DNA from: an uncultured Holophagae bacterium
GTDB taxonomy: Bacteria > Acidobacteriota > Thermoanaerobaculia > Thermoanaerobaculales > Sulfomarinibacteraceae
Assembly (NCBI GenBank): GCA_963797055.1
Contig: CAWCOD010000006.1
Coordinates: 573,642-637,641 of the forward strand
Reading direction: 5' to 3'
DNA: 64,000 bases
This document shows positions 2,557-63,367 of this stretch, one piece after another (the first letter of the stretch is position 1; every line of letters begins with the position of its first letter). Both the position numbers and the translations under genes were made by a program. Under the pieces are notes generated by a model. The model did not search any database, had not been told where the DNA came from, and was given only the letters and a program-made list of their open reading frames with translations.

Positions 2557-5343
2557 ATGAACCTCATTGAAAAAGGCATTGATGCCGTCTTTGGCTCAAA
2601 GCACGAGCGAGACATAAAACGCATGCGGCCCATGATTCGGGAGATCAACGATCTCGAACCGGAGATGGAGGCCCTGGACGACGATCGGCTGCGCGGGCGA
2701 ATCGACGAGATTCGAGAGCGCGTACGGGCGTCGTTGACCGACCTGCCAGACGAGGCACGCGCCCGGAGCGTGATGGTCCAAGAGGTTTTGGATCGGGAGT
2801 TGGTAGAGGTCTATGCAATCGTCCGTGAGGCGTCGAAAAGGGTGACGGGGATGCGCCACTTCGACGTCCAACTGGTCGGAGGCATCGTGCTCCATGAAGG
2901 CCGGATCGCGGAGATGAAGACCGGTGAGGGCAAGACCCTTGTGGCGACCCTCGCTGTGGCACTCAACGCGCTCAGCGGTCGAGGGGTTCACGTCGTTACC
3001 GTCAACGATTACCTGGCGCAGCGTGACGCGGACTGGATGGGGAAAATCTACCGGTTTCTCGGCTTTTCTGTCGGCTGTATCCAGAATCAAATGAAGGATG
3101 ACGAGCGCAAGGCTGCCTACGGAGCCGATATCACCTACGGTACGAATAACGAGTTCGGCTTCGACTACTTGCGGGACAACATGAAGTTCTCCCTCGATCG
3201 GATGGTCCAAAGGGACCATGCCTACGCCATCGTCGACGAGGTGGATTCGATTCTAGTGGATGAGGCCAGAACGCCGCTTATCATCTCCGGCCCATCTGAG
3301 GTGTCCGTCGATCTCTATTACAAGGTCGACGGTGTGATTCCGAAACTCGGTCGTGGCGAGGAAATCGAGGACAAACACGGCAACAAGGAGGTCACCGGCG
3401 ACTATCTGGTGGATGAGAAGGCCCAGACAGCGACCCTCACCGAGCAGGGGATGCAGCGGGTCGAGAAGATCCTCGGTGTTGAAAACCTCTGGGATCCGTC
3501 GCAGACCGAAATTCTCCACGCTGTGAATCAGGGGCTGCGCGCCCACTCACTGTTTGAGCGGGACCGCGAGTACATCGTCAAGGACGGCGAGGTGATCATC
3601 GTTGACGAGTTCACCGGAAGGTTGATGTCGGGCCGGCGCTGGTCCGACGGTCTGCACCAGGCTGTGGAGGCCAAAGAAAAGGTCAAGATCCAGTCGGAGA
3701 ACCAGACGCTGGCAACGGTCACCCTGCAGAACTACTTCCGGATGTACGACAAGCTGGCGGGGATGACCGGTACCGCTGAGACCGAGGCCGAAGAATTTCA
3801 GAAGATCTACGGGCTGGATGTCGCCGTGATCCCGACCAACGTCAATATGGTCCGGGACGATGCGGCCGATGTGGTCTACAAAACCGAAAAGGAGAAGTTC
3901 CGGGCGGTGATCGACGAGATCCAACGGAGCCATGAGCGGGGCCAGCCGGTCCTGGTGGGTACGGTCTCGATCGAAAAGTCGGAGCGGCTGGACAAGTTGC
4001 TGCAGCGTCGCAAGATCAAGCACGTTGTGCTGAACGCCAAATACCACGAGCGGGAGGCCGACATCGTCGCCCAGGCCGGTCGGAAGGGAGCGGTGACCAT
4101 CGCCACCAACATGGCGGGCCGAGGCACAGACATCGTGCTGGGTGGCAATCCGGAAGGTTTGGCGAGGATGGAGGCCGATCCCGGCGCGGATCCGGAGGGC
4201 TATGAGAGGGCGTTGGTCAAGTACACCGAATTGTGTGTTACTGAAAAGGAGGAGGTGCTCGCCGCCGGCGGCCTCCAGATCATCGGCACCGAACGTCACG
4301 AGGCCCGCCGGATCGACAACCAGTTGCGCGGTCGATCGGGCCGGCAGGGGGACCCCGGTGCGTCCCGTTTCTTCCTGTCTTTAGAAGATGACCTGATGCG
4401 GATTTTTGCGGCCGATTGGGTGCGCAAGATGATGGATCGGCTTGGGATGGAAGAGGACGTGCCCATCGAGTCGAAGATGGTGTCCAAGTCCATCGCCCGA
4501 GCGCAGACGCAGGTTGAAGGACGGAACTTCGATATCCGCAAGCACCTGCTCGAGTACGACGACGTCATGAACAAACAGCGTGAGGCCGTCTATCGTCTCC
4601 GCCGGCAGATTCTCGAAGGGGTGGAGGGCCGCGACTACATCATCCGGGTGGTTGATGAAATCGTTGCCAGCATGATCGACCGATTCTGTCCCGAGGACGC
4701 CGATCCGGAGGACTGGGACACCGCCGCCATGGACATCGAATACCGATCCTATTTCGGGATCACGGTGGAGCAGGTGGGGGTGGACTGGCAGAAGGTCAAC
4801 CGGGTGGAGCTCGAGGAACAGTTGGTGGACGGGGCCAAGCGCCACTATCACGAACGGGTGGAGCGCTTTGGTGACGACGAGTTTAAAAAGCTCGAGAAAT
4901 TCCTCCTCCTCGACACGGTGGATCGCCAATGGAAAGACCACCTTCTGGCTCTGGACCATCTGAGAGAGGGCATCGGTCTGCGCGCGTACGGCCAACGCAA
5001 CCCCCTGGTGGAGTACAAACGCGAGTCTTACGCCCTGTTCGAGGATATGTGGGAGCGGATCGAGGACCACGTGGTGAAGTTCCTCTACCACGCCGAACCG
5101 GTGGAGGACTATCAGCAGCGCCGGCGCGGTGTCACGACCACTCTGTCTCACCCGGACGCCGCCGGGCTCGCCAAATCCCATGAGCAGCAGGAGAGGGCGG
5201 CGAGCACACCGGTCGGTGGGCCGACGAAACCCTCCACGGTTCGCCGGATGCAACCCAAGGTGGGACGAAACGACCCGTGTCCCTGCGGATCGGGCAAGAA
5301 GTACAAAAAGTGCTGCGGGGTGGACTCCGCGGCGGGGAGGTAA
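2557..5343 (+). CDS. secA: Preprotein translocase ATPase SecA
   Basis: 928 aa. Motor motifs [13 protein letters not shown] and [20 protein letters not shown]-terminal zinc finger [14 protein letters not shown]. Confidence 0.98.
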
Positions 5344-6822: not shown

Positions 6823-6914
6823 AGGGAGCAGGAAGCAGTTGGCAGGGGCCAATCTCGCGACCTCCGCTCCCTGCTCTCTGCTCCCTGCACCCTGTTCCCC
6901 GCTCCCTGCACCCT
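6823..6914. repeat. Inverted heptamer arrays: AGGGAGC/AGGAAGC (6823-6836), spacer, then 7 in-register units GCTCCCT/GCTCTCT/GCACCCT/GTTCCCC (6866-6914)
   Basis: Read directly. Fills the guaB-gmd spacer. Confidence 0.9.
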
Positions 6915-6932
6915 GTCTGGTAGACTCCGCCA

Positions 6933-11618: not shown

Positions 11619-11786
11619 AAAATGTCGAAAATCGAAGGTCTCAATCTGTCTTCTGCGGGCCCTTCGATGAACCTCGTCGAGCCTATTACCCCCGGCGCGC
11701 TCCCCGAGGTTGCCCGGTATTGACGTTGAGCGGCCACAACGACGGATGCAATTTTGGGGCAATGTATCGCACAACGTCATACCCGG

Positions 11787-11831
11787 CACGCCCGATCAAC
11801 GCGTCCTTTCGCTCCGGATGAGTGGACGGGG
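11787..11831 (+). repeat. 45-nt dispersed module CACGCCCGATCAACG[CG]GTCC... (second copy at 52762-52805)
   Basis: 20-nt near-identical core seen at both loci. Confidence 0.7.
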
Positions 11832-12046
11832 ACTTTTGACTGTAGACTTTAGCCCGAACTTCTCACCGGGTATCTACTGCGGGCGGCGAATCGCGTCGTT
11901 CCGTCGTGTTTGTCGCAAATCGTGTTCCTCAACATAGTGCGACTATGCCTACGTCGCCCAATTACACGACAAACCCAGCGGAGACTTGCGTTTCGCCACC
12001 CTCGCGACGAAACCCGGTGAGAAGTACGGGCTAGACTGGTGAGATA

Positions 12047-14751: not shown

Positions 14752-14835
14752 AGCAGGGAGGAGGGAACACGGAGCAGGGAGCAGGGAGCAAGCAATTCGA
14801 AATTCGAAATTCGCAATTCGCAATTCGTAATTTCT
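14752..14835. repeat. 12 in-register heptamers switching from AGCAGGG-type (6 units) to AATTCGN-type (6 units)
   Basis: Read directly. Lies 28 nt upstream of the OPT start. Confidence 0.95.
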
Positions 14836-15791: not shown

Positions 15792-16796
15792 TCAGTCGGG
15801 AAAACGAAGAACCGTGCCCGGTCTCTTCGGCCCGTGCGGTCCGTCCTCGTCCAGCCGCGGGTTCGACTCGGCACCAAAGGCCCTGCGGGCGAAACCCGGG
15901 TCGAGGTCCCCCAGGTAACGACGGATCCGTGACAGCGCCGAGCGAACGGTCGACGGATTGGCGGCGGCAGCACGAGCCACTTTCGTGGCCGACGGATGGT
16001 GTCCTTCGAGCTCCAGGATTGCAGTGACGACGGCTGCTCCCCAGGGTTCCGGAGTCTGGATTCGTATGGGATGACGGGCACTGAAGCTGCGCCACAGCCG
16101 GCGTGCGGCCAGGACGGTGAGGTCGGAGAAGTCCAGGACGTTGCCGCACCGCAAGATCACTTCGTCCACCTCGGCGGCGACGCCGTCCACATCCTCCAGG
16201 GATTGCCGCCAGCTCTCGTGCAGACGATTCTCGGCCCGGCGCCGACTCCATTCCCGACTGATGGAATCGTGGGTTTCGAGCAGCAGGAGCGAGTCGGGAT
16301 AACGTCCGATCCCTTCTTCCAGAACGGCCTCTGCCTCGATCCAGCGACCCACGGTGGCGAGGAGGTTGGCCCGGAGTCCCACCAGAAAGACCTGCATGTC
16401 TTCGGGAACCTGAACCGACGGAGCGACCCGGTCGAGAATTTCGAGAGCCTCCGGCAGTCGACCCTGGTCGGCGAGCAGCATGACCAGTTGAATCGGAATG
16501 TGGATCGCCTCCGGGAAGAGTTCGGTCCCCATGGTGAGGTACTTTTCGGCGCGTTCGTCCTCGCCCACAGCATTCAAGGCCGTGGCCATGAGGTGGCAGG
16601 CATGGGGTGACGAGTTGAGGTCCCAGGAATCCGATGCGGCGGTCAGAGCCCGATCCGGACAGCCCATGGAGAGCAGCGCCTGGGCTTTCCAGATCAGGAG
16701 TTGCGATTCGAGGTGGGCGTGGCCCCGCGCCCGCGTCAGGGAGCGTTCGACCTCGGTCAGGACCTTTCGATGGCGGCCCTGTTGGCTCAATTCCAA
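15792..16796 (-). CDS. TPR-like helical repeat protein with C-terminal helix-turn-helix-like segment; start uncertain
   Basis: Helical repeats. C-terminal SATKVARAAAANPSTVRSALSRIRRYL. There is no in-frame ATG between the helical-repeat domain and the repeat block. TTG at 16796 has GGAG 6 nt upstream. Confidence 0.5.
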   Translation of the reverse strand: MELSQQGRHRKVLTEVERSLTRARGHAHLESQLLIWKAQALLSMGCPDRALTAASDSWDLNSSPHACHLMATALNAVGEDERAEKYLTMGTELFPEAIHIPIQLVMLLADQGRLPEALEILDRVAPSVQVPEDMQVFLVGLRANLLATVGRWIEAEAVLEEGIGRYPDSLLLLETHDSISREWSRRRAENRLHESWRQSLEDVDGVAAEVDEVILRCGNVLDFSDLTVLAARRLWRSFSARHPIRIQTPEPWGAAVVTAILELEGHHPSATKVARAAAANPSTVRSALSRIRRYLGDLDPGFARRAFGAESNPRLDEDGPHGPKRPGTVLRFPD

Positions 16797-16884
16797 GCAG
16801 CGCTCCAGCGACCGCTGTATGCGGCCTTCGAGTTCACCATCGGAGATCCCGGGGTGTGCCGGACATGGCGTTAGGTTAGCAGGA

Positions 16885-17059
16885 AACAGGGGACAGGGGA
16901 CAGGGAGCGGGCCCCGCCCGCCCGGATGCAAGATGCAAGATGCAGGATCCCCCGCCCACCCGAGCCCGATCCCGAGCCCGAGCCCGTTACCGTTACCGTT
17001 ACCGAACGAAGAACCAAGCACGAAGAACGAAGAACGAAGAACGAAACCACCCACCCACC
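16885..17059. repeat. Composite array: 11 heptamers (ACAGGG-, TGCAAGA-type plus C-tract boxes), 7 hexamers (GAGCCC x4, GTTACC x3), 8 heptamers (GAACGAA-type, ACCCACC)
   Basis: Register counted base by base: 16885-16961, 16962-17003, 17004-17059. Confidence 0.9.
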
Positions 17060-17217
17060 CGGGTCGTGAAAGGGCACGATGGGTGGGCGTGAAGCTCTGA
17101 TGATTTTGGAAGAGCATTATCAGCGGTGGGGGTCCTTCGTTGCACCCCGGTTCTTCGTCGCGCTTCTCGTGAGGATGCCAGGCACCGACATGGAGATCGG
17201 AATGCGAGGGTGGAAAT

Positions 17218-17440
17218 CTGCCGGCGGCAGCGGCCAGGACGAGGGCGGGCAACCGGTGTCCGGGGCAGATGGCGGCATCGGTGATGAGCGGCCGCAATCC
17301 GGGGCAACCCCAACTGCCCCTGATGACTGTCGCCGCTCGCTGTCCCCAGCCGCTGTCCCTGTACGCTGCCGCTGCCTCTCGGGCATCGCAAGGAGACGGA
17401 AACGCAGACACCCCACCTCACGCTTTCCCGGATGAAGCAA
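17218..17440 (+). repeat. Dispersed repeat family 1, copy A (about 220 nt)
   Basis: Shares ordered blocks with 23074-23374: GCAACCGGTGTCCG, GCATCGGTGAT, CCGCAATC, CTGCCCCTGATGACTGTC, GCCTCTCGGGC, GGAGACGG, GACACCCCAC, TTCCCGGATGAA. Confidence 0.85.
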
Positions 17441-17443
17441 ACC

Positions 17444-17472
17444 AAAAAACCCCGCCCACCGGGTGAGCGGGG
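17444..17472 (-). terminator. Rho-independent terminator of the Trp-rich protein gene
   Basis: Minus strand reads CCCCGCUCAC-CCG-GUGGGCGGGG followed by U6. Confidence 0.85.
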
Positions 17473-17484
17473 AGAGGAGGGGCT

Positions 17485-17514
17485 GCCCGAGCCCGAGCCC
17501 GTTACCGTTGCCGG
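17485..17514. repeat. Hexamer array (GCCCGA x2, GCCCGT, TACCGT, TGCCGG), including a 24-nt direct repeat of 16971-16994
   Basis: CCCGAGCCCGAGCCCGTTACCGTT is identical at 16971-16994 and 17486-17509. It overlaps the stop and last codons of the upstream gene. Confidence 0.9.
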
Positions 17515-18968
17515 GACGTGTGAGTTGTGTTTTCGCGTGACCGTTGGGAATTCCCCGACCTGGATCGTTCCGTTGCCGGTTTGGAAGATCGGCCGGACTT
17601 CGTGCTGACTTTGGCTTGTGTTCGAGGCACTGAGCGATTTCGATCGACATTGTCCTCTGCTTTCGCACCCCGACTTCTCGTGGGATCATTCGTGGCCACC
17701 ATCCGGGACGGCTTGTCGTGTCTGACACTGTGGGCGGTGGCGTCAGACCGAGCGGATGATGGGACAATGCGGAGGTCGGGCCGCTGTGAGGCAGGCTTTG
17801 ACGTGGCGGCCCGCTTCGAAGAACTGGAACGTTTTTCTGAAGCACTCGCTCTGGCTGTGGACGCGGACCGCCGTACGCCATCGGTGGGTTGCTTCACCGC
17901 TATCCGGGGTGTTGCTCGAGTTGAGTTCTTGGTGGCGGATTCACGCACCTCGCTGGCACTGCCACGAGCGGCCCTTGTCGTCCGGGGCGGGGTTGAGCCG
18001 CGGTCGTTCGAGACCGAGTGGGTTGAAACTCGCCCACGAGTGGATTGCTTCTGCACGGCGGCCCTTCCCTGAGTTGCCAGGGCCCGCTCCACGGTGCGTC
18101 CGCCGTGCCGTTGGACCATGTCGTGGACTCCACTGGGACGGGCGATCAATACCTCCCGGCTATCGACCCGGACGGTTCGCGTTTCCATGGTTTTCTCGGG
18201 TAGGACAACGCCCCTCCGGGCGAGCGTGGGTCGGTCGGGGACTCCCGTCACGATCCGAGGCTGGGCCCCGGCTGAAGCCCGCACAGTTGATGCGGTCACG
18301 GCGTGTTTGGAGAGATCTTCGGCTCCGAAGTTGTTCCACTGAGAATAGGTGGCGTAGCGGGCGTCGTTCCACCCCGACCAGTAGCCGTTGTCGTAACCCC
18401 CACGGTAACCGTTCTGATAACCGCGACGGTAGCCGTGGTCGTACCCTCTCCCATACCCCATGGCAGCGTGACTCCATCCCGGCGGAGGGCAGGCGTACCA
18501 GCCCACGTACCCGCCCGCGGTCACCCAGGTGACGTTGGCGGGCCGGTAGGTGTAACCGGGCACCCAGACCCAGCCCTGATGGCTCATGGCCCAATGGCCG
18601 AAGTGGTGGGGAAAGAACCCCCAGGGCTCATAGGCCACCCACGTCCAACCGTATGATGACCACACCCAGCGGCCATGGGTGTACGGGCGCCATCCAACCG
18701 CCACCATGGGACGCCAGCACTGACCCAGACCATCAACCCAGACCCAGTTGCCATAGCCGGACAGTGCGACGTGATAGTCCACCTGCCAGTTGGGGTTGGA
18801 CCAGGACGATCCATAGACCGCCCAGTTGTTGGAGCCGAAGGCGATGGAAAGACCGCCGCTGCCGACCTGCACGCCAAACCACTCGGCGCCGCGGGCCGGG
18901 GCCGCGAGCAGGGTCAGGGTCAGAACAATCGCAATGGCGTAGAGGACTCTGCGTGCGCGTTGTTTCAT
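17502..18968 (-). CDS. Secreted Trp/Gly/Tyr-rich protein (DUF6600-like N-domain) with a long basic Ser/Arg/Thr-rich tail
   Basis: Signal peptide ...LLAAPARGAEW. Motifs YEPWGFFPHHFGHW and GWVWVPGYTY. The C-terminal ~200 aa are low complexity. Start moved to ATG 18968. Confidence 0.75.
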   Translation of the reverse strand: MKQRARRVLYAIAIVLTLTLLAAPARGAEWFGVQVGSGGLSIAFGSNNWAVYGSSWSNPNWQVDYHVALSGYGNWVWVDGLGQCWRPMVAVGWRPYTHGRWVWSSYGWTWVAYEPWGFFPHHFGHWAMSHQGWVWVPGYTYRPANVTWVTAGGYVGWYACPPPGWSHAAMGYGRGYDHGYRRGYQNGYRGGYDNGYWSGWNDARYATYSQWNNFGAEDLSKHAVTASTVRASAGAQPRIVTGVPDRPTLARRGVVLPEKTMETRTVRVDSREVLIARPSGVHDMVQRHGGRTVERALATQGRAAVQKQSTRGRVSTHSVSNDRGSTPPRTTRAARGSASEVRESATKNSTRATPRIAVKQPTDGVRRSASTARASASEKRSSSSKRAATSKPASQRPDLRIVPSSARSDATAHSVRHDKPSRMVATNDPTRSRGAKAEDNVDRNRSVPRTQAKVSTKSGRSSKPATERSRSGNSQRSRENTTHTSRQR

Positions 18969-19156
18969 GGCGACCTCCCCGGGGCCGTGTTCTGTGGGCC
19001 CCGACCCTTTCAGGAGCAAGCCTCATGCCACGGGCGGATCGAGGGTTCGAGAGGGGCGTTCACAGAAGGATTTCGAGTCAACACGCCGATGATCCGATCG
19101 GACCCACTCGAACAATTTATGTCCTCTTGAGAGGACGGGCCATCGAGGCGCTTGAG

Positions 19157-21249: not shown

Positions 21250-21319
21250 AATTCGAGTCCCAAACCCCGAATTTCGAGTCCCGAATCCCGAGTTCCGAAC
21301 CCCGAAACCCGAGTCCCGA
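21250..21319. repeat. 10 in-register heptamers ending in CGA/CAA (AATTCGA, GTCCCAA, ACCCCGA, ATTTCGA, GTCCCGA ...)
   Basis: Read directly. Follows the pcm stop and a CCCCGCCGCCCACC box. Confidence 0.9.
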
Positions 21320-21383: not shown

Positions 21384-22844
21384 ATGTGTGGCATCGTCGG
21401 CGTCATAAGCAAGAACGGGCGGCCTGTGGTTCGCGACTTGGCCAACGGCGCACATTTTCTCCAACACAGAGGCCCGGCCTACGCCGGTCTCTTTGTTTTC
21501 GACCCGGTGCACCACAGTACGGCGCTGGAGAAGGGTGAGGGCCTCGCCGACGACATCTTCAAACCCCACGGCGACATCCCCGGCGACATCGGAATCGCAC
21601 ACACGCGATACAAGACCTACGGCAGCGGCGGTGTCGTCAACGCGCAGCCTTTCTACGATCCCTTCACAGGAATCGCACTGGCCCACAACGGCCATATCAC
21701 CAACGCCGAACAGATCGGATCAGAACTCCGCCGCCGTGGCCAGGCGCTCGCGAATCACTGCGACGCCGAGCCGCTGCTGCGGACCCTCGGGCTGTGGTTC
21801 GAGCACTACCGGCGGGCCGATCCGGGCGCGGCCGAGTCGGATGCGATGTTTCGCGCCATAACCGAGGTCCAGCAGCGGGTCACGGGCGCATACTCCGCGG
21901 TGGCGGTGACTCCCGGGGGAATGTACGCCTTTCGCGATCCGCACGGTTTTCGGCCCATGGTGCTGGGGCGACGAGATCGGCCCGGGGCGGTCATGATCGC
22001 GTCGGAGACCCTCGCCCTGGAACAGAACGGCTTCGATGTCATCGAACATGTGCCGTACGGCGCGGCGCTCTTCATCGATCACTCGCTCGAAGTGGACGAG
22101 AGGGTGCAGGTCCAAAAAGACCCGCGGCCCTGCGCTTTCGAGCTGATTTACTTTGCCGATGTGGAATCCTCCATGATGGGTGACAGGGTCCGTTCCTTCC
22201 GATGGCGGGCGGGTCGCGCATTGGCGGTGCATCTGACGGAGGTGGCGCCCGAGGTGGTGCCCCAGATCGACCTCGTGGTCCCCATCCCGCACTCGCCCAT
22301 CCCGGGGGCTGAGGCCTTTGCCCAGAAGATCGAGAAGGAGATCAACGGCGGGGCGATCCAGTACGCCACTCCGGTCTCAAAATACCGCTACGGCGGGCGG
22401 ATTTTCATGGAGGAGACCCAGGAGGAGCGGGACAAGGCGGCCATGCTGGATTTCCGGGTTGATGACAAAGCTGTGTCCGGCCGCAACATATTTCTGGTGG
22501 ACGACAGCATCGTGCGCGGCACCAACGCCACCCGCATTGTTCGGGCTCTCAAGTCGGCAGGGGCCGGAAAGATCTTCTTCGGGACGCTTTGGCCTGCGGT
22601 GATCGACTCGTGTTTTCAGGGCATCAACACCCCGACCCAGAGTGAGCTCATCGGCGCTCGCTTTGCCGGGGATTCGGGCGAAATTGCAACCGAACTCGGG
22701 GTGGATGCGCTCCATTACCTGCCCATCGATGTGTTCCAGGAGATGGTGATCAAAGGGGCACCGGCGTGCATGGCGTGCACCACCGGTCAACGGGCGGTCA
22801 AATTCGAGCACGCCGGCGAGGTTCTCCCACCTCCCGTTCAGTAG
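21384..22844 (+). CDS. purF: Amidophosphoribosyltransferase
   Basis: MCGIVG N-terminal nucleophile. PRTase motif NIFLVDDSIVRGTN. Confidence 0.93.
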   Translation: MCGIVGVISKNGRPVVRDLANGAHFLQHRGPAYAGLFVFDPVHHSTALEKGEGLADDIFKPHGDIPGDIGIAHTRYKTYGSGGVVNAQPFYDPFTGIALAHNGHITNAEQIGSELRRRGQALANHCDAEPLLRTLGLWFEHYRRADPGAAESDAMFRAITEVQQRVTGAYSAVAVTPGGMYAFRDPHGFRPMVLGRRDRPGAVMIASETLALEQNGFDVIEHVPYGAALFIDHSLEVDERVQVQKDPRPCAFELIYFADVESSMMGDRVRSFRWRAGRALAVHLTEVAPEVVPQIDLVVPIPHSPIPGAEAFAQKIEKEINGGAIQYATPVSKYRYGGRIFMEETQEERDKAAMLDFRVDDKAVSGRNIFLVDDSIVRGTNATRIVRALKSAGAGKIFFGTLWPAVIDSCFQGINTPTQSELIGARFAGDSGEIATELGVDALHYLPIDVFQEMVIKGAPACMACTTGQRAVKFEHAGEVLPPPVQ

Positions 22845-23001
22845 TGTTTCGACCTCCGAGGCGCTGCCAGGCACCGACCTCCTGTTGCAGTTCCGGGATC
22901 CGTCCAGCGGCAGACCCAGCGCCGGCGAGCGTCTCCACCGACAGCATCCAGAATGGCCGGTGCCAGGTGGGCACGATGGGCAGGCGTGCCACTCCAGGCA
23001 C

Positions 23002-23043
23002 CTTGAAGTTGAAAGTTAAACGTTGAACGTTCCCACCCACCCC
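23002..23043. repeat. 6 in-register heptamers (CTTGAAG, TTGAAAG, TTAAACG, TTGAACG, TTCCCAC, CCACCCC)
   Basis: Read directly. The inverted partner lies at 23375-23398. Confidence 0.9.
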
Positions 23044-23073
23044 GAGCGCGGTTGGGAGAGGGGTGCGTCGATC

Positions 23074-23374
23074 AGCGGCAGTCGGCAGCGGCCGGGACAG
23101 GGGCAGCAACCGGTGTCCGAGGGACTCGGCAGCATCGGTGATCAGCGACCGCAATCTGACGCAATCGCCGCTGGAACACTGCCGCGGCCCCTGATCGCTG
23201 CCGCAACCGCCGATCACGGACGCTGCCCCTGATGACTGTCCCTGTTCGCTGTTGCCAGCCGCTATCGCTGAACGCGGCCTCTCGGGCCCGGGCACCCGGC
23301 TTGCCCTCGGGCGACGCTGTGGCACGCGGAGACGGGCACCCGGACACCCCACATCACGTGTTCCCGGATGAACC
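23074..23374 (+). repeat. Dispersed repeat family 1, copy B (about 300 nt, with an internal CCCCTGAT duplication)
   Basis: Collinear blocks shared with 17218-17440. The 3' module is also shared with 34377-34463. Confidence 0.85.
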
Positions 23375-23398
23375 AAATTTGAACGTCTAACGTTCAAC
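23375..23398. repeat. Inverted TTGAACG-type heptamers (AAATTTGAACGTCTAACGTTCAAC)
   Basis: Reverse complement of the unit type at 23002-23029. Overlaps the stop codon at 23394-23396. Confidence 0.85.
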
Positions 23399-24495: not shown

Positions 24496-24558
24496 AACAA
24501 GGAGCAGGGAGCAGGGAGTAGGGAGTAGGGGGCAGGTGGCAGGGGGCGGGTGGGGGAG
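24496..24558. repeat. 9 in-register G-rich heptamers (AACAAGG, AGCAGGG x2, AGTAGGG x2, GGCAGGT, GGCAGGG, GGCGGGT, GGGGGAG)
   Basis: Read directly. Sits in a divergent promoter region. Confidence 0.9.
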
Positions 24559-33719: not shown

Positions 33720-33821
33720 AATTTTTAGTTCTCAAATATTGAATTTTGAATTTCCCCCTCCCGCCCAAGAGAGGCAGGAGTTGTCCGAAATTCAAAATTG
33801 AGAATTGAGAATTGAGAATTC
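33720..33821. repeat. Heptamer-armed hairpin element: 5 AT-rich heptamers (33720-33754), 32-nt GC core (33755-33786), 5 inverted heptamers (33787-33821)
   Basis: Arms AATTTTT/AGTTCTC/AAATATT/GAATTTT/GAATTTC versus GAAATTC/AAAATTG/AGAATTG x2/AGAATTC. The inner 13 nt are perfectly complementary. Confidence 0.9.
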
Positions 33822-34314
33822 AGCGCCCACGGTGTAGGGCGTCGAGTTCGTCCCTGAGCTCGGGGATGTCGAGGGATTGAGTGGTCATGATCCGCCAGCC
33901 CGAAGGCTCTTTGCGCCAGAGGATCGACGCTGTACAGGGGGTGGACCGGCTGCCCAGGATGGTCCCGGCCCCATCGCCGTCCCTGCCGGAGACCACGAAG
34001 CGGAGCCGGACCAGAACACCCTCCTCGGTTCGGTCTGCGGCGGTCTTTAAAAATTCAACGTCGAGATCATCGAAGGTGGCCATCATCTCGCTGATGTTGC
34101 CGGCGATGGACTCGTAACTCTGGCCCCAGGGGTCGCTGTACTCGCGGGAGACCACCTGTAGGGTGCCGAGGAGTTGTTCTGACTCGAATGCCTCGATCGC
34201 GGCGAGGAGCTTGCGTTGTACGACGCGTTCTGGCGAGAAGTACTGTCTGAACCAGAAGGTCAGTACCAGTGCGACTCCGACGATGACAATGACGACGAGA
34301 CGGTTGTTCTTCAT
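33820..34314 (-). CDS. Membrane-anchored NTF2/SnoaL-like protein
   Basis: N-terminal TM helix RLVVIVIVGVALVLTFWF. The ~140-aa alpha+beta domain assignment is weak. Confidence 0.5.
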   Translation of the reverse strand: MKNNRLVVIVIVGVALVLTFWFRQYFSPERVVQRKLLAAIEAFESEQLLGTLQVVSREYSDPWGQSYESIAGNISEMMATFDDLDVEFLKTAADRTEEGVLVRLRFVVSGRDGDGAGTILGSRSTPCTASILWRKEPSGWRIMTTQSLDIPELRDELDALHRGR

Positions 34315-34376
34315 GCTTCGAGTTTAACGCCGGATTTCCGTGAGATGGACAGTGGTTGAATTCGGAATTCGGAGAC

Positions 34377-34463
34377 CCCGCCCACCCGGCTTCGCCTCGG
34401 GCTACGGCGTGGCAAGCGGAGACGGAGACGGCGAAAGCCAACCCCACCTTTTCCGGATGAGCC
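34377..34463 (+). repeat. Repeat family 1, 3' module only
   Basis: ACCCGGCTT[CG]CCCTCGGGC...GTGGCA[AC]GCGGAGACGG...CCCCAC...TTCCGGATGA is collinear with 23305-23372. Confidence 0.8.
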
Positions 34464-34513
34464 AGATGTTAAACCTCGAACGGTGTGCTGATGGATGAGA
34501 GGGGTATGCAGTC

Positions 34514-34548
34514 CTCAATCTGCAATCTGCAATCTGCAATCTGAAATC
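34514..34548. repeat. 5 heptamers (CTCAATC, TGCAATC x3, TGAAATC)
   Basis: Read directly. The same unit recurs at 52804-52838 and 63319-63339. Confidence 0.9.
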
Positions 34549-43356: not shown

Positions 43357-43464
43357 GATTTTGAATGTTGAATTTTGAATTCTCGATTTCCACGTGCGTG
43401 CGCAACGGAGCATTGGGGTGGTTGACCGTCATTCAAAATTCAAAACTGAGAATTGAGAATTCGA
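43357..43464. repeat. Heptamer-armed hairpin element: 5 heptamers (43357-43391), 38-nt core, 5 heptamers (43430-43464)
   Basis: Arms built from GATTTTG/AATGTTG/AATTTTG/AATTCTC versus CATTCAA/AATTCAA/AACTGAG/AATTGAG/AATTCGA. Confidence 0.9.
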
Positions 43465-43471
43465 GGAAACT

Positions 43472-43753
43472 ATGAGATACGACGATCCCGATGTCCCTGC
43501 GTCCGCGATCGTAGGCATTCTCGGAGCGATTCTGCTGTTTGCGATCATCGTCGGATTACAGGGTCTGTTCTACTCCATGGAGCGCAAGGAACTGGCGCAG
43601 AAGATCGCCGACAATCCGTACGAACCGCTCAAACGCCTCGATGCGGATCAGCTCGAAATTCTCAATAGCTACGGTTGGGTCGACCAGCAGGCGCAGACCG
43701 TCCACATTCCCATTCGTCGCGCCATGGAACTCGTCGTCACTGAATCGCAATAA
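43472..43753 (+). CDS. Small single-TM protein (93 aa) downstream of actF; possible accessory ACIII subunit
   Basis: GAGG lies 5 nt upstream of the ATG. TM helix ASAIVGILGAILLFAIIVGLQGLF. No family recognised. Confidence 0.55.
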   Translation: MRYDDPDVPASAIVGILGAILLFAIIVGLQGLFYSMERKELAQKIADNPYEPLKRLDADQLEILNSYGWVDQQAQTVHIPIRRAMELVVTESQ

Positions 43754-43857
43754 TTCTCAATTCTCAGTTCTAAATTTTGAATGAACCCCTGCCCGCCCAA
43801 CATGAACCGGGTGGGTGGTGGGAATTTAGAATTGAGACTTCAAAATTGAGACTTCAC
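43752..43857. repeat. Heptamer-armed hairpin element: 5 heptamers (43752-43786), 36-nt core CCCTGCCCGCCCAACATGAACCGGGTGGGTGGTGGG, 5 heptamers (43823-43857)
   Basis: Read directly. The arms contain the stop codons of both convergent genes (43751-43753 and 43854-43856). Confidence 0.9.
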
Positions 43858-52656: not shown

Positions 52657-52730
52657 CATGTCGGTGCCAGGCGCCGCCGCAGTATGTCGAACTCGCACTA
52701 CGACTCGATTTCGACGGTGCCTGGCACCGG
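52657..52730 (-). repeat. 74-nt MITE-like element with palindromic 13-mer ends (GGTGCCAGGCGCC 52663-52675; GGTGCCTGGCACC 52716-52728)
   Basis: Reverse complement is collinear with 57637-57710. Confidence 0.85.
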
Positions 52731-52805: not shown

Positions 52806-52859
52806 AATCTGCAATCTGCAATCTGCAATCTGCAATTCGTAACGGGCGGGTGGGGGACC
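52804..52859. repeat. 8 in-register heptamers (GGAATCT, GCAATCT x3, GCAATTC, GTAACGG, GCGGGTG, GGGGACC) flanked by G-tract boxes
   Basis: Read directly. Confidence 0.9.
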
Positions 52860-54730: not shown

Positions 54731-54746
54731 AACGGATACGCGCGGG

Positions 54747-54818
54747 CCGGTGCCAGGCACCGTCGAAATCGCATCGGAGCACGAGATATGTACGTTGGCG
54801 GAGGTGCCTGGCACCGCC
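54747..54818 (+). repeat. MITE-like element copy (GGTGCCAGGCACC 54749-54761; GGTGCCTGGCACC 54803-54815)
   Basis: Collinear with 57637-57710 (CCGGTGCCAGGCACCGTCGAAA...). Confidence 0.85.
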
Positions 54819-54890
54819 ACGGTTCGACCGAAGGAACGTTACCCCCTGCCGTCTGCCGCCTACTGTCAACCAGACCGCCGCGTCCACGGC

Positions 54891-54918
54891 AAACAACGTA
54901 CAACCCACAACCTACAAC
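54891..54918. repeat. 4 heptamers ending ACAAC (AAACAAC, GTACAAC, CCACAAC, CTACAAC)
   Basis: Read directly. Overlaps the stop and last codons of the citrate synthase gene. Confidence 0.85.
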
Positions 54919-56054
54919 CTGCTTGGAGCTGGCTCAGTCAGATAGACGGCCCCGGGCTCGATCATGGCGCCGTCCGGCAGATACTCCAGACAGTGAGCCA
55001 TCCATCCGGTCTGAATCGCGAGGCAGAAGGGGATCGGGAAACCCGAAGCCGGCAAGCCCAGGGGGTGGTAGAGCAGCCCGGTAATACTGTCCACGTTGGC
55101 AAAGATCCCCCGGCTTCCGAGCGCAGATTCGACCTCATCGCGCAGCCCCATGTAGATTCTCCACAGCTGTCCCATTCCACGCGAGGCGAGAAGCGATCGG
55201 GCGAAAGGTTCCAGCGCCGTCACCCGGGGATCGGGACACGAGTAGACGCGGTGACCGAACCCCGGGAATCGATGACGACGGGCCAGGCCGTCTCGTGCCC
55301 AGGATCGTGCTTCCGCCGTCGTGGAGAAACCGGCGAGCATCTCGAAGGCGAGTTGGTTGGCACCGCCATGACGGGCCCCGGACAACGCGCCCATGCCGGC
55401 GAGGACCGCCGATCCGAGATCCGCCCCGGTGGATGAAACCACCAGAGCGGCGAGGGCGGCGGCGTGGAGACCGTGCTCCGCCTGAACGATCAGGCTGGCA
55501 TCGAAGGCTCGGACCTCGTCGGCCTCGGGCTGGCGTCCAAGGACCTGGAACAGCCAGTTGGCCGAGTAGCCGAGATCGTCGGATGGATCCACCGGGTTTT
55601 TGCCGTCGAGGTGTCTGATGGCTGCCGCGGCCAGAGAGGCCGTCCAGCTCAGGATTCGGGCCGGGCGGCGCCACTGGGCGTCGAGACTGATGTCATCGGC
55701 CTCCGGGATCTGACAGGCGGCTACGGTCAGCATGGTCCGAAACTGGGCGAGCGGGTGGGCCCGGAAGGGGACCGTGGCGAGGGCCTGGAAGGCGGATCGG
55801 GGCGGGGTGCGCCACCTGCGGAGTTCAGCTGACCATGAGTCCAGTTGGGTTGAATCCGGCAGCTCTCCAAACAGGACGAGGAAGGAGACCTCCTCGAAAC
55901 TGCTGTGCTCCACCAGCTCCGCCACGTCGTACCCGCGATAGAGCAGTCGGCCGCGAACTCCGTCGATCAGCCCGATGGCGGTGTCACCGGCCACCAAACC
56001 ATCGAGCCCGCGGGTGTAGCGCTGGACGGCATCAGATGGCGGCCTGCCGATCAT
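54912..56054 (-). CDS. Citrate synthase family protein (catalytic triad intact)
   Basis: SGARHGGANQ (His), FPGFGHRVY (His), FANVDSITG (Asp). 380 aa. Confidence 0.88.
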   Translation of the reverse strand: MIGRPPSDAVQRYTRGLDGLVAGDTAIGLIDGVRGRLLYRGYDVAELVEHSSFEEVSFLVLFGELPDSTQLDSWSAELRRWRTPPRSAFQALATVPFRAHPLAQFRTMLTVAACQIPEADDISLDAQWRRPARILSWTASLAAAAIRHLDGKNPVDPSDDLGYSANWLFQVLGRQPEADEVRAFDASLIVQAEHGLHAAALAALVVSSTGADLGSAVLAGMGALSGARHGGANQLAFEMLAGFSTTAEARSWARDGLARRHRFPGFGHRVYSCPDPRVTALEPFARSLLASRGMGQLWRIYMGLRDEVESALGSRGIFANVDSITGLLYHPLGLPASGFPIPFCLAIQTGWMAHCLEYLPDGAMIEPGAVYLTEPAPSRL

Positions 56055-57307: not shown

Positions 57308-57335
57308 CAGAGTTCAGAGTTCAGATCCACCCACC
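57308..57335. repeat. 4 heptamers (CAGAGTT x2, CAGATCC, ACCCACC) after an ACCCGCC box
   Basis: Read directly. Confidence 0.8.
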
Positions 57336-57440
57336 TCGAGCGCTTGTTGGCGCGACGACCGGGCGTGCCACTTCTGACACTTTCGGGAGGATGTGCTTTG
57401 AATTGCCCGACATTGTGGGGCCCCGAACAGTGTCAGGGGT

Positions 57441-57586
57441 GGCAACCTGCCGGCGGCAGCGGTTGTGGCCGTGGCCGTGTTCGGCGGCCATGTCCGATCC
57501 TGTACGAAGGATCAGAGGCCTTACGGCCACCCGCTGGTGACGGCTGGTCACCGCGGCCACCGGCCGCGAGTAACCTCGGGAAGCGC
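57441..57586 (+). repeat. Repeat module C (hairpin-rich, about 145 nt), copy 1
   Basis: Reverse complement of 63065-63204 is collinear, starting GGCAACCTGCCGGCGGCAGCGGTTGTGGCCGTGGCCG. Confidence 0.85.
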
Positions 57587-57636
57587 GGTTGGGAGATGGG
57601 CGCGCAGAAGTCGGCAAATCAAAACAAACGCACGGG

Positions 57637-57710
57637 CCGGTGCCAGGCACCGTCGAAACCGATTCGTTGTACGAGGTCGACATACTGCGGCGGTGCCTGG
57701 CACCGACATG
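57637..57710 (+). repeat. MITE-like element copy (GGTGCCAGGCACC 57639-57651; GGTGCCTGGCACC 57692-57704)
   Basis: CCGGTGCCAGGCACCGTCGAAACCG...GTCGACATACTGCGGCGGTGCCTGGCACCGACATG. Confidence 0.85.
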
Positions 57711-57760
57711 CCCGCCTATTGAGCGGAGAATCTAGCCCCTAGCCCCTGGGATGGGCGGGG

Positions 57761-62754: not shown

Positions 62755-62894
62755 AACCCGCCCCGAGTCCCGAGCCCCGATTCTCTCCCTCCCGTCCGTG
62801 ACCGCACAAAATCTCAATTCTCAGTTTTGAGTTTTGAATTGCCCTTCGACGTGCACATCTCCCGACCGCGCTCCCCGAGGGCGCGTATCTCGGA

Positions 62895-63064: not shown

Positions 63065-63204
63065 GCGCTACCCGAGGTTTCGCGGCCGGTGGCCGCGGTG
63101 ACCAGCGTACCAGCGTTTGGCCGTAAGGCCTCTGATCCTGTAAAGGATCGGACATGGCCGCCGCACGCGGCCACGGCCACAACCGCTGCCGCCGGCAGGT
63201 TGCC
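63065..63204 (-). repeat. Repeat module C, copy 2 (inverted)
   Basis: See 57441-57586. Confidence 0.85.
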
Positions 63205-63318
63205 CCCTTAGACATTGTTGGGACCTCACGGGTTGAACTTGCCAGCACCTTGGTTCCCAACAATGTCAAAGACGGCACGCCCGCCATACGCGCCCACCTC
63301 GCTCCGGGTGGGCGGGAG

Positions 63319-63367
63319 GAATCTGCAATGTGCAATCTGGAATTCGCAGTTCGAAATGGGTGGGTGG
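63319..63367. repeat. 7 heptamers (GAATCTG, CAATGTG, CAATCTG, GAATTCG, CAGTTCG, AAATGGG, TGGGTGG) between G-tract boxes
   Basis: Read directly. Confidence 0.85.

Follow-up and report, generated by a model that had tools for sequence, protein, structure and literature searches.

Three copies of a dispersed intergenic repeat in an uncultured Holophagae genome are probably truncated relics of transposase-less elements derived from an ISL3-family insertion sequence

What is the repeat that recurs between the genes of a 64,000-nucleotide stretch from an uncultured Holophagae bacterium (contig CAWCOD010000006.1; the whole stretch is called the window hereafter)? An initial annotation, made from the sequence alone, had described two copies, A (17218-17440) and B (23074-23374), and a third locus, C (34377-34463), and had put forward three proposals, namely a structured RNA, DNA bound by a protein, and a non-autonomous mobile element in decay. 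The last of these proposals was borne out, in that the 3′ end of the repeat is the right inverted repeat (IRR) of an ISL3-family insertion sequence (IS) and its relatives have inverted termini and 8-bp target-site duplications (TSDs). We conclude, with a probability of roughly 0.88, that the repeat is the IRR-side (transposase-3′) arm of non-autonomous elements derived from such an IS, and that the copies in the window are truncated relics.

The similarity of the three copies was reproduced as three consecutive repeat families in the window: 17242-17316 matched 23099-23173 at 76% identity, 17314-17385 matched 23223-23294 at 79%, and 17392-17441 matched 23328-23377 at 84% and 34418-34467 at 60%. 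Copies were also collected genome-wide, and a profile search, with an nhmmer profile built solely from copies in one related Holophagae (Acidobacteriota) metagenome-assembled genome (MAG), confirmed the long ordered match (E = 4.8e-54 for 23069-23376 in copy B, E = 1.5e-41 for 17204-17438 in copy A). Taken alone, the terminal 11-mer TTCCCGGATGA was not above chance (3 matches, 2.1 expected), and the exact 18-mer CTGCCCCTGATGACTGTC gave 19 matches across genomes, about the chance level, mostly in unrelated taxa and three in Holophagae.

Complete units and their parent insertion sequence

Both termini of complete units in related genomes read GG(T/C)TCATCCGG..CGTGAG. The two ends pair when the right one is read as its reverse complement (GGTTCATCCGGATTTCCGTGAGATGG on the left, GGTTCATCCGGGAAAACGTGAGGTGG on the right); in the related MAG, a 951-nt stretch opens with GGTTCATCCGGATTTCCGTGAGATGG and closes with GGTTCATCCGGGAAAACGTGAGGTGG in reverse complement, and this closing sequence is the TTCCCGGATGA end pointed out in the initial annotation. 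When the flanks of 15 complete units were compared, identity was 0.88 at exactly 8 bp and at most 0.41 at every other length from 4 to 12, and 7.0 of 8 positions agreed against 4.66 of 8 in a cross-pair control. End pairing gave 77 units, 42 of them with a TSD of at least 7/8 and 23 with a perfect one. The duplicated target is NAACGTTN, with the consensus N-A-A-(C/A)-(G/T)-T-T-N. Since duplications were also found at non-heptamer sites outside repeat arrays (GATATTGA, CAATTTTC and AAACGGGA), the 8-bp flank identity is unlikely to be a by-product of heptamer arrays. The units fell into three size classes:

Class 1: 214-344 bp, resembling miniature transposable elements with inverted repeats (MITEs), no open reading frame (ORF)
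Class 2: 418-720 bp, deleted, with gene remnants
Class 3 (the mode): 780-990 bp, with an intact PF05635 gene of 123-124 aa

No transposase was found inside any unit, the 214-990-bp units holding at most the 124-aa PF05635 ORF. This cargo gene lies on the opposite strand to the + strand of the initial annotation, belongs to the 23S rRNA intervening-sequence (IVS) or 'four helix bundle protein' family (E = 3.3e-19) and is preserved intact in some 35 units, which come from five or more MAG species. Its median dN/dS was 0.14 over 151 pairs (dS often above 1), showing that it is under purifying selection. The annotated repeat corresponds to the stretch from the right terminus to the PF05635 start codon. 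The 3′ ~150 nt of this arm are common to the cassettes of other species, whereas the 5′ ~110 nt are confined to the lineage that the window shares with the Holophagae MAG MFD09964.bin.1.27, in which they form, together with the rest of the arm, a ~170-nt imperfect palindrome.

At two loci, cassettes were arranged as head-to-tail multimers with units 5 nt apart (four units at 1375-4431 of L089, three at 423-1916 of L118), recalling the abutted inverted repeat-inverted repeat junctions of IS dimers. The whole array of L089 was enclosed by one shared 8-bp duplication (AAACGTTT).

An autonomous IS with the cassette termini was found at 3143-4445 of DATIVB010000613.1 (L169), and surfaced only after the pairing distance of the termini had been relaxed. 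It is 1303 bp long, is flanked by the TSD GAACGTTT/GAACGTTG and has a single ORF of 403 aa matching PF01610 (DDE_Tnp_ISL3, E = 6.7e-69) and also PF13542. Members of the ISL3 family make 8-bp duplications and have inverted repeats beginning with GG (ISfinder). Five further copies on metagenome contigs (L170-L174; 1303-1307 bp, transposases of 67-81% aa identity) share the ends of L169 and NAACGTTN-type duplications. The stop codon of the L169 transposase lies inside the IRR (..ctcacctcacggattcccggaTGAgcc, reading ..LTSRIPG and stop), and that of L173 follows ..LTSRFPG, the same codons as in the + frame of copy A (..TSRFPG and stop). Because the transposase ORF ends inside the IRR, the homology of the repeat ends at a TGA and a short frame is kept although the rest is non-coding; the conserved 'TTCCCGGATGA' end is likewise explained by the stop codon within the IRR, and only the last six codons plus the stop (TSRFPG and stop) are a real coding relic. 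No recurring long ORFs were found beside unpaired termini, and a tblastn search with the transposase over about 170 other loci gave L169 as the sole match. We know of no previous description of an ISL3 lineage with GG(T/C)TCATCCGG ends and a NAACGTTN target from uncultured marine-sediment Acidobacteriota.

Although the contig of L169 carries an Acidobacteriota-type PF05635 cassette adjacent to the autonomous IS, its label assigns it to a Chondromyces sp. MAG; either it is possibly mis-binned or the family crosses phyla.

The elements share with ISL3-family ISs (PF01610) the GG termini, the imperfect inverted repeats of ~25 bp, the 8-bp duplication at AT-rich palindromic targets and the single transposase ORF ending in the IRR, the autonomous 1303-1307-bp copies having identical ends. 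On the other hand, the window copies and most family members have no transposase, and would depend on one supplied in trans. IS ends that enclose a passenger gene without a transposase are called a mobile insertion cassette (MIC), and those without an ORF a MITE (PMC4133298). Like MICs (e.g. MIC231 of the Bacillus cereus group) and bacterial MITEs, which are mobilised in trans, the present elements have IS-type inverted repeats, TSDs, many copies and no transposase (PMC4133298). They differ in that the passenger is a PF05635 gene under purifying selection across species, that cassettes are far commoner than the IS, that the arms are unusually long (250-400 nt) and made of short tandem repeats, and that copies A and B are one-ended fragments.

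The three copies in the window

By comparison with complete units, the copies were resolved into the following parts (IRL, left inverted repeat):

16966-17091, + strand: upstream part of copy A, internal modules with CCCGAG/CCGTTA repeats, GAACGAA heptamers and a CCCACCC motif; colinear with full-unit positions 320-415
17176-17438, + strand: core of copy A, enclosing the annotated 17218-17440; probable right, IRR-side arm of an ISL3-derived cassette, made up of an imperfect palindrome, degenerate CTGCCGCTG-type short repeats and then the IRR
17411-17438, + strand: IRR of copy A, CCCCACCTCACGCTTTCCCGGATGAAGC; fossil transposase stop TGA at 17433-17435
22871-23374, + strand: copy B, full extent; colinear with positions 75-175, 385-477 and 690-934 of L045/L109-type units (blastn)
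23265-23325, + strand: ~59-nt insertion variant in copy B (..CCGGCTTGCCCTCGGGCGACGCTGTGGCACGCGGAGACGG), common to copy C, L041 and L109 (alignment columns 208-266)
23347-23374, + strand: IRR of copy B, CCCCACATCACGTGTTCCCGGATGAACC; relic stop codon at 23369-23371
34330-34373, + strand: left arm of copy C, IRL-side CCGGATTTCCGTGAGATGGACAGTGGTTGAATT and GAATTCG heptamers; outermost 7 nt (GGTTCAT) gone
34377-34463, + strand: right arm of copy C; IRR at 34442-34463 (CCCCACCTTTTCCGGATGAGCC), relic stop at 34458-34460

The core of copy A aligned with positions 696-973 of a 975-bp unit in L028 at 74% identity, its upstream part with units in L028, L109 and L035 at 81-83% (blastn), and its IRR with those of the autonomous ISs (e.g. 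..GACCTCACGCTTTCCCGGATGAGCC in L173). Of the unit, positions 1-319, with the left arm, the IRL and the gene remnant, are missing from A, and no IRL was found near it in the window; copy B lacks the IRL and heptamers (unit positions 1-74) as well as the gene remnant. The copies first described therefore exist, but the homology is longer than had been drawn, covering 16966-17091 and 17176-17438 in A and 22871-23374 in B. What had been called an extra internal duplication in B has two sources, namely a family-typical unit that was lost from A and the 59-nt insertion variant. The third locus does contain the 3′ module, but not that alone: the opposite terminal arm is also present at 34330-34373, with an exact 19-mer match (0.04 expected by chance) and 92-97% identity to positions 8-46 of many units, and the two arms are fused into a MITE-like mini-element of 134 nt (34330-34463). 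Thus, an IRR is present in all three copies, whereas the IRL is absent in A and B and short by 7 nt in C. Neither a PF05635 gene or remnant nor an ISL3 transposase (tblastn with the transposase) was found in the window. Since A and B have lost the left terminus and C lacks its outer 7 nt, all three copies are most likely immobile relics.

Regarding distribution, the terminus pattern was found genome-wide at no fewer than 104 loci, nearly all in Holophagae, Sulfomarinibacteraceae and Thermoanaerobaculia MAGs, and a gapped 3′-end pattern gave about 19 copies in MFD09964.bin.1.27 and a few in Sulfomarinibacteraceae. This MAG is the closest genome compared (90% aa identity for the amidotransferase, conserved gene order), and insertions are polymorphic between the two: in the MAG, the site syntenic to copy B contains no element, and a complete 934-bp unit is found across the inositol-phosphatase gene from it, a place that is empty in the window. 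Occupancy is therefore not orthologous. Copy number is high; the 951-nt stretch is 99% identical at five loci in MFD09964.bin.1.27, and the depth of repeat words in marine-sediment metagenomes was 150-390x against ~5x for unique flanks.

We propose the following route to these copies. An ISL3 DDE transposase, supplied in trans, would bind both inverted termini (GG[T/C]TCATCCGG..CGTGAG..) and insert the unit at NAACGTTN-like sites, making the 8-bp TSD. The ORF of the 1303-1307-bp parent IS ending in the IRR, its derivatives would keep the 'CTCACG.TTTCCCGGATGA(A/G)CC' end and, with it, a fossil TGA. Among these, the common one would be the 780-990-bp MIC, in which the transposase gene would have been replaced by the oppositely oriented 123-124-aa PF05635 gene, and the annotated element would be the ~250-400-nt stretch of decayed ~7-nt repeats between the IRR and the PF05635 start. 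In the lineage of the window, these repeats would have been inverted-duplicated into the ~170-nt imperfect palindrome. Internal deletions would have given rise to the 214-344-bp MITE-like units; A and B would have lost the left end and the gene, and C would be a mini-element short of the outer 7 nt. The proposal of a protein-bound DNA element would then hold in the trivial sense that the termini are putative transposase-binding sites, and not otherwise.

Several points weigh against an ISL3 origin of the repeat. The IS is known from one genome contig (that labelled Chondromyces sp.) and short metagenome contigs only, and was not found in the window or the searched Holophagae MAG loci, so that transposase and cassettes may not share a genome; that the ISL3 transposase actually mobilises the cassettes is what we infer from sequence. 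Cassettes vastly outnumber the IS, and given this abundance and a gene under selection, the cargo may be more than passive. Of the copies in the window, A and B, for want of a left terminus, offer no target duplication to test, and the flanks of copy C (..AGTTTAAC / AGATGTTA..) give no clean 8-bp repeat.

The repeat as such is ordinary, an element of a known kind (ISL3-derived MIC/MITE), and the interest lies in its cargo gene and the heptamer arrays. For annotation, the stretches should be masked as ISL3-derived MIC/MITE relics and not called as small RNA (sRNA) genes or small ORFs. Such relics would also explain why assemblies of this uncultured sediment lineage break and why its intergenic regions are mosaic.

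Each of the three copies is intergenic. Copy A has a TPR gene on one side and a DUF6600 gene on the other, and comes directly after the terminator of the latter, whose T-run its terminus abuts; copy B lies between convergent amidotransferase and inositol-phosphatase genes; and copy C lies 15 nt upstream of the start of a 164-aa gene (33820-34314, - strand).

17450-17472, - strand: intrinsic terminator of the DUF6600 gene (17502-19019, - strand); 10-bp stem with 8 GC pairs, then TTTTTTGG (terminator scan)

The cargo gene and alternative readings of the repeat

By virtue of their inverted ends, 8-bp duplications, dozens of sites and purifying selection, the complete cassettes are the clearest evidence known to us of a gene of the '23S rRNA intervening-sequence protein' family travelling as a bona fide transposable unit. 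With a defined transposase, ends and cargo, the family offers a concrete system for studying both IVS mobility and the role of the four-helix-bundle protein. A literature search of limited coverage found no publication tying PF05635 genes to elements with terminal inverted repeats (TIRs) and TSDs or to ISL3. Relatives of the cargo make up 3914 clusters (90% identity, E<=1e-5), most of them on short contigs. The mobility of IVSs has been suspected for a long time, and was proposed in the early 1990s (PMC4990558). ORF-bearing 23S IVSs of Leptospira and Coxiella (S23p) resemble the complete units in that an ORF for a PF05635 protein lies between inverted sequences able to form a long stem, with tandem heptamers beside the ORF in Coxiella and a suspected mobility (PMC4990558). 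They differ in that the present elements are intergenic between protein genes, not in rRNA helix 25/45, from which RNase III cuts out IVSs, and have ISL3 termini and TSDs. The window copies have no PF05635 protein between inverted flanks, unlike the complete related units, and no rRNA was found in the window.

A near-perfect hairpin of 25-28 bp was observed just upstream of the PF05635 start (L040, 3110-3185; also L084, L100, L153 and others). Its core, TCAAGGG/CCCTTGACA, is invariant and its 3′ arm contains TTGACA, while its outer stem consists of four unrelated sequences in four lineages that are still paired, with 15 of 30 pairs compensated and hardly any G·U intermediates; the hairpin may represent a DNA palindrome or else an RNA stem of the RNase III type. 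In a tblastn search of plasmids with the cargo, only two matches were obtained, both cyanobacterial and without ISL3 ends, which argues that the ISL3 vehicle is not general for the PF05635 family. One of them (Anabaena sp. 90 pANA02, L250, 1114-1889) is a four-helix-bundle gene in a type I-D CRISPR-cas operon, where it separates cas6 from cas4 and follows ~280 nt of heptamers (GGTGACA/GGGAACA). The other (Geminocystis pGM3709_03, L251, 1413-1866) lies between a parA-like and a parB gene, and is bracketed by inverted AAAGGGA arrays with 46-nt arms that are 80% complementary.

These cases bear on the alternative that survives best, which we nevertheless consider rather unlikely: the arm would belong primarily to a module of the four-helix-bundle gene and inverted heptamer arrays, the same entity as the ORF-bearing 23S IVSs, with the ISL3 termini as a captured vehicle and the short repeats as functional sites for the PF05635 protein. 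In its wider form, held equally tentatively, the PF05635 gene and the inverted ~7-nt repeat arrays would be a self-contained selfish or regulatory module, its protein acting on the arrays as DNA or RNA, that rides on ISL3 ends here, where it has out-multiplied the parent IS, and resides elsewhere in 23S rRNA as an ORF-bearing IVS or inside operons (e.g. cas6/cas4 in Anabaena sp. 90). If so, the annotated repeat would be the decayed binding-site arm of the module, and heptamer arrays across the genome could be its footprints or targets. Such a module is consistent with the purifying selection on an ORF far commoner than the IS and with cassettes of other lineages, in which both arms are decayed GCTGTCA/TGACAGC-type arrays inverted around the ORF. 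The inverted heptamer arrays flanking the two plasmid genes without ISL3 ends, the tandem heptamers next to the S23p ORF in the Coxiella IVS (PMC4990558) and the compensated hairpin before the start codon point the same way. However, the binding of heptamer repeats by the PF05635 protein is hypothetical, and its link to the arrays is put forward as a hypothesis only; the arrays are abundant genome-wide without the gene, so their adjacency could be background; the sample outside Acidobacteriota amounts to three cases; and the window copies are without any PF05635 gene.

It is improbable that the copies are host-domesticated intergenic elements of the repetitive extragenic palindrome (REP) or bacterial interspersed mosaic element (BIME) type, spread by recombination and serving as terminators, mRNA stabilisers or protein-binding sites. 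Like the REP/BIME of enterobacteria, which combine short palindromic modules into mosaics between genes, close to gene ends, the intergenic regions here are mosaics of modules shared in both orientations, all three window copies adjoin gene ends, and A and B are joined to different 'head' modules. Insertions and deletions nested among several MITE families are, however, enough to explain this mosaicism, and the relics are not conserved at orthologous sites in the closest MAG. Furthermore, the elements have defined inverted termini with 8-bp TSDs at many independent sites and a cognate transposase of the DDE type, whereas REPs possess no TIR and 8-bp TSD themselves and are moved by a REP-associated tyrosine transposase (RAYT, Y1); their units measure 214-990 bp, with neither REP-like units of 20-40 nt nor an associated RAYT gene.

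Less probable still is a structured non-coding RNA, either an sRNA or a cis-regulatory leader, with helices and loops in the conserved blocks and the ~170-nt hairpin as its functional fold. Single copies did fold somewhat better than shuffles (z = -3.1, -2.6 and -1.5), and model positions 33-198 match their own reverse complement. Double changes were seen once each in 5 of 54 pairs, a count reached by 8 of 500 shuffles, most pairs being invariant and the copies close. Beyond this, the expected support did not appear: Rfam gave 0 matches at the gathering score in the 64-kb window, where the tRNA scan was likewise empty, and the covariation term of RNAalifold over 23 copies was +0.15, that is, none. 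About 30% of the palindrome positions are mismatched, with many transversions, and as G·T mismatches (3-6) occur as often as A·C mismatches (1-8), neither strand is favoured; this is the pattern expected of a decaying inverted duplication. The 5′ half of the element is confined to one lineage, occupancy differs at orthologous sites, and the boundaries coincide with transposon termini and TSDs. No contigs covered the stretch in the sole metatranscriptome with related words, a weak point, as contig data cannot show absence. A search for a known IS or MITE end, set beforehand as the finding to count against a structured RNA, returned the ISL3 end, and this proposal of the initial annotation was thus not upheld.

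Least probable is a small + strand protein ending at the conserved TGA (..HPTSRFPG and stop), for although the 118-aa ORF 17079-17435 spans copy A up to that TGA and its last 6-7 codons are kept between A and B, an upstream stop breaks the frame in B, the 5′ blocks lie in another frame, the frame is shifted in C, neither start codon nor ribosome-binding site is conserved, and the C-terminal codons are fully explained by the ISL3 transposase ORF running into the IRR. The earlier remark that no plausible ORF spans any copy needs amending only in its letter; ORFs at 17079-17435 (+), 15792-17411 (-) and 22798-23397 (-) do span copies, but their frames are not kept and they are not genes. A coding reading was tested on both strands and rejected because of frame inconsistency between copies. 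An IS200/IS605-type palindrome-associated transposable element or omega-RNA scaffold was also ruled out, as TIRs and 8-bp TSDs are present, which elements of that type lack, having subterminal hairpins and inserting 3′ of a set tetra- or pentanucleotide.

Heptamer arrays and other dispersed modules

About 30 short period-7 tandem arrays with differing units (including GGGACTC, AATTCGA, GAACGAA, GGAGCAG, AATTGAG and CAATCTG) were observed in intergenic gaps near gene ends of the window, for example at the following positions:

1214-1268, 6866-6915, 14752-14832, 16886-17045, 21254-21319, 23003-23031 and 24501-24544: period-7 arrays
33796-33820, 34516-34548, 43358-43461, 43752-43856, 52806-52836, 54893-54920 and 63320-63343: further period-7 arrays

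Many of them are followed by CCCACCCACCC or GGGTGGGCGGG runs, which are prone to form G-quadruplexes, and the same was seen in loci of related MAGs. Unexplained intergenic heptanucleotide repeats have been reported in Beggiatoaceae (TAACTGA) and cyanobacteria (PMC4679880). The present arrays resemble the cyanobacterial short tandemly repeated repetitive (STRR) sequences and the TAACTGA repeats as short 7-nt intergenic arrays near gene ends, many per genome (PMC4679880), and differ from them in that many different units occur per genome, often followed by CCCACCC/GGGTGGG runs, that AACGTTN is the preferred ISL3 target and that arrays also form the cassette arms. AACGTTN arrays stand directly after the stop codon of inositol-phosphatase genes, at 23379-23397 (- strand) in the window and at 11690-11730 in L045. 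As AACGTT is self-complementary and would give a hairpin followed by a T-rich run, these arrays may double as the terminator of the gene.

The 'heads' joined to copies A and B differ from each other, and are themselves further dispersed modules, which can be found on their own in the window as well. Further intergenic modules of this kind were located as follows:

52657-52730, 54738-54819, 57327-57387, 57572-57711, 62844-62880, 63180-63322, 11696-11807 and 11850-12034: further dispersed intergenic modules

They are shared with the interior of composite units in the related MAG, include a palindrome GGTGCCWGGCACC around a conserved spacer (..GTCGAAATCGNATCGGAGCACGA..), and probably represent additional MITE-like families that are nested together with the ISL3 cassettes.

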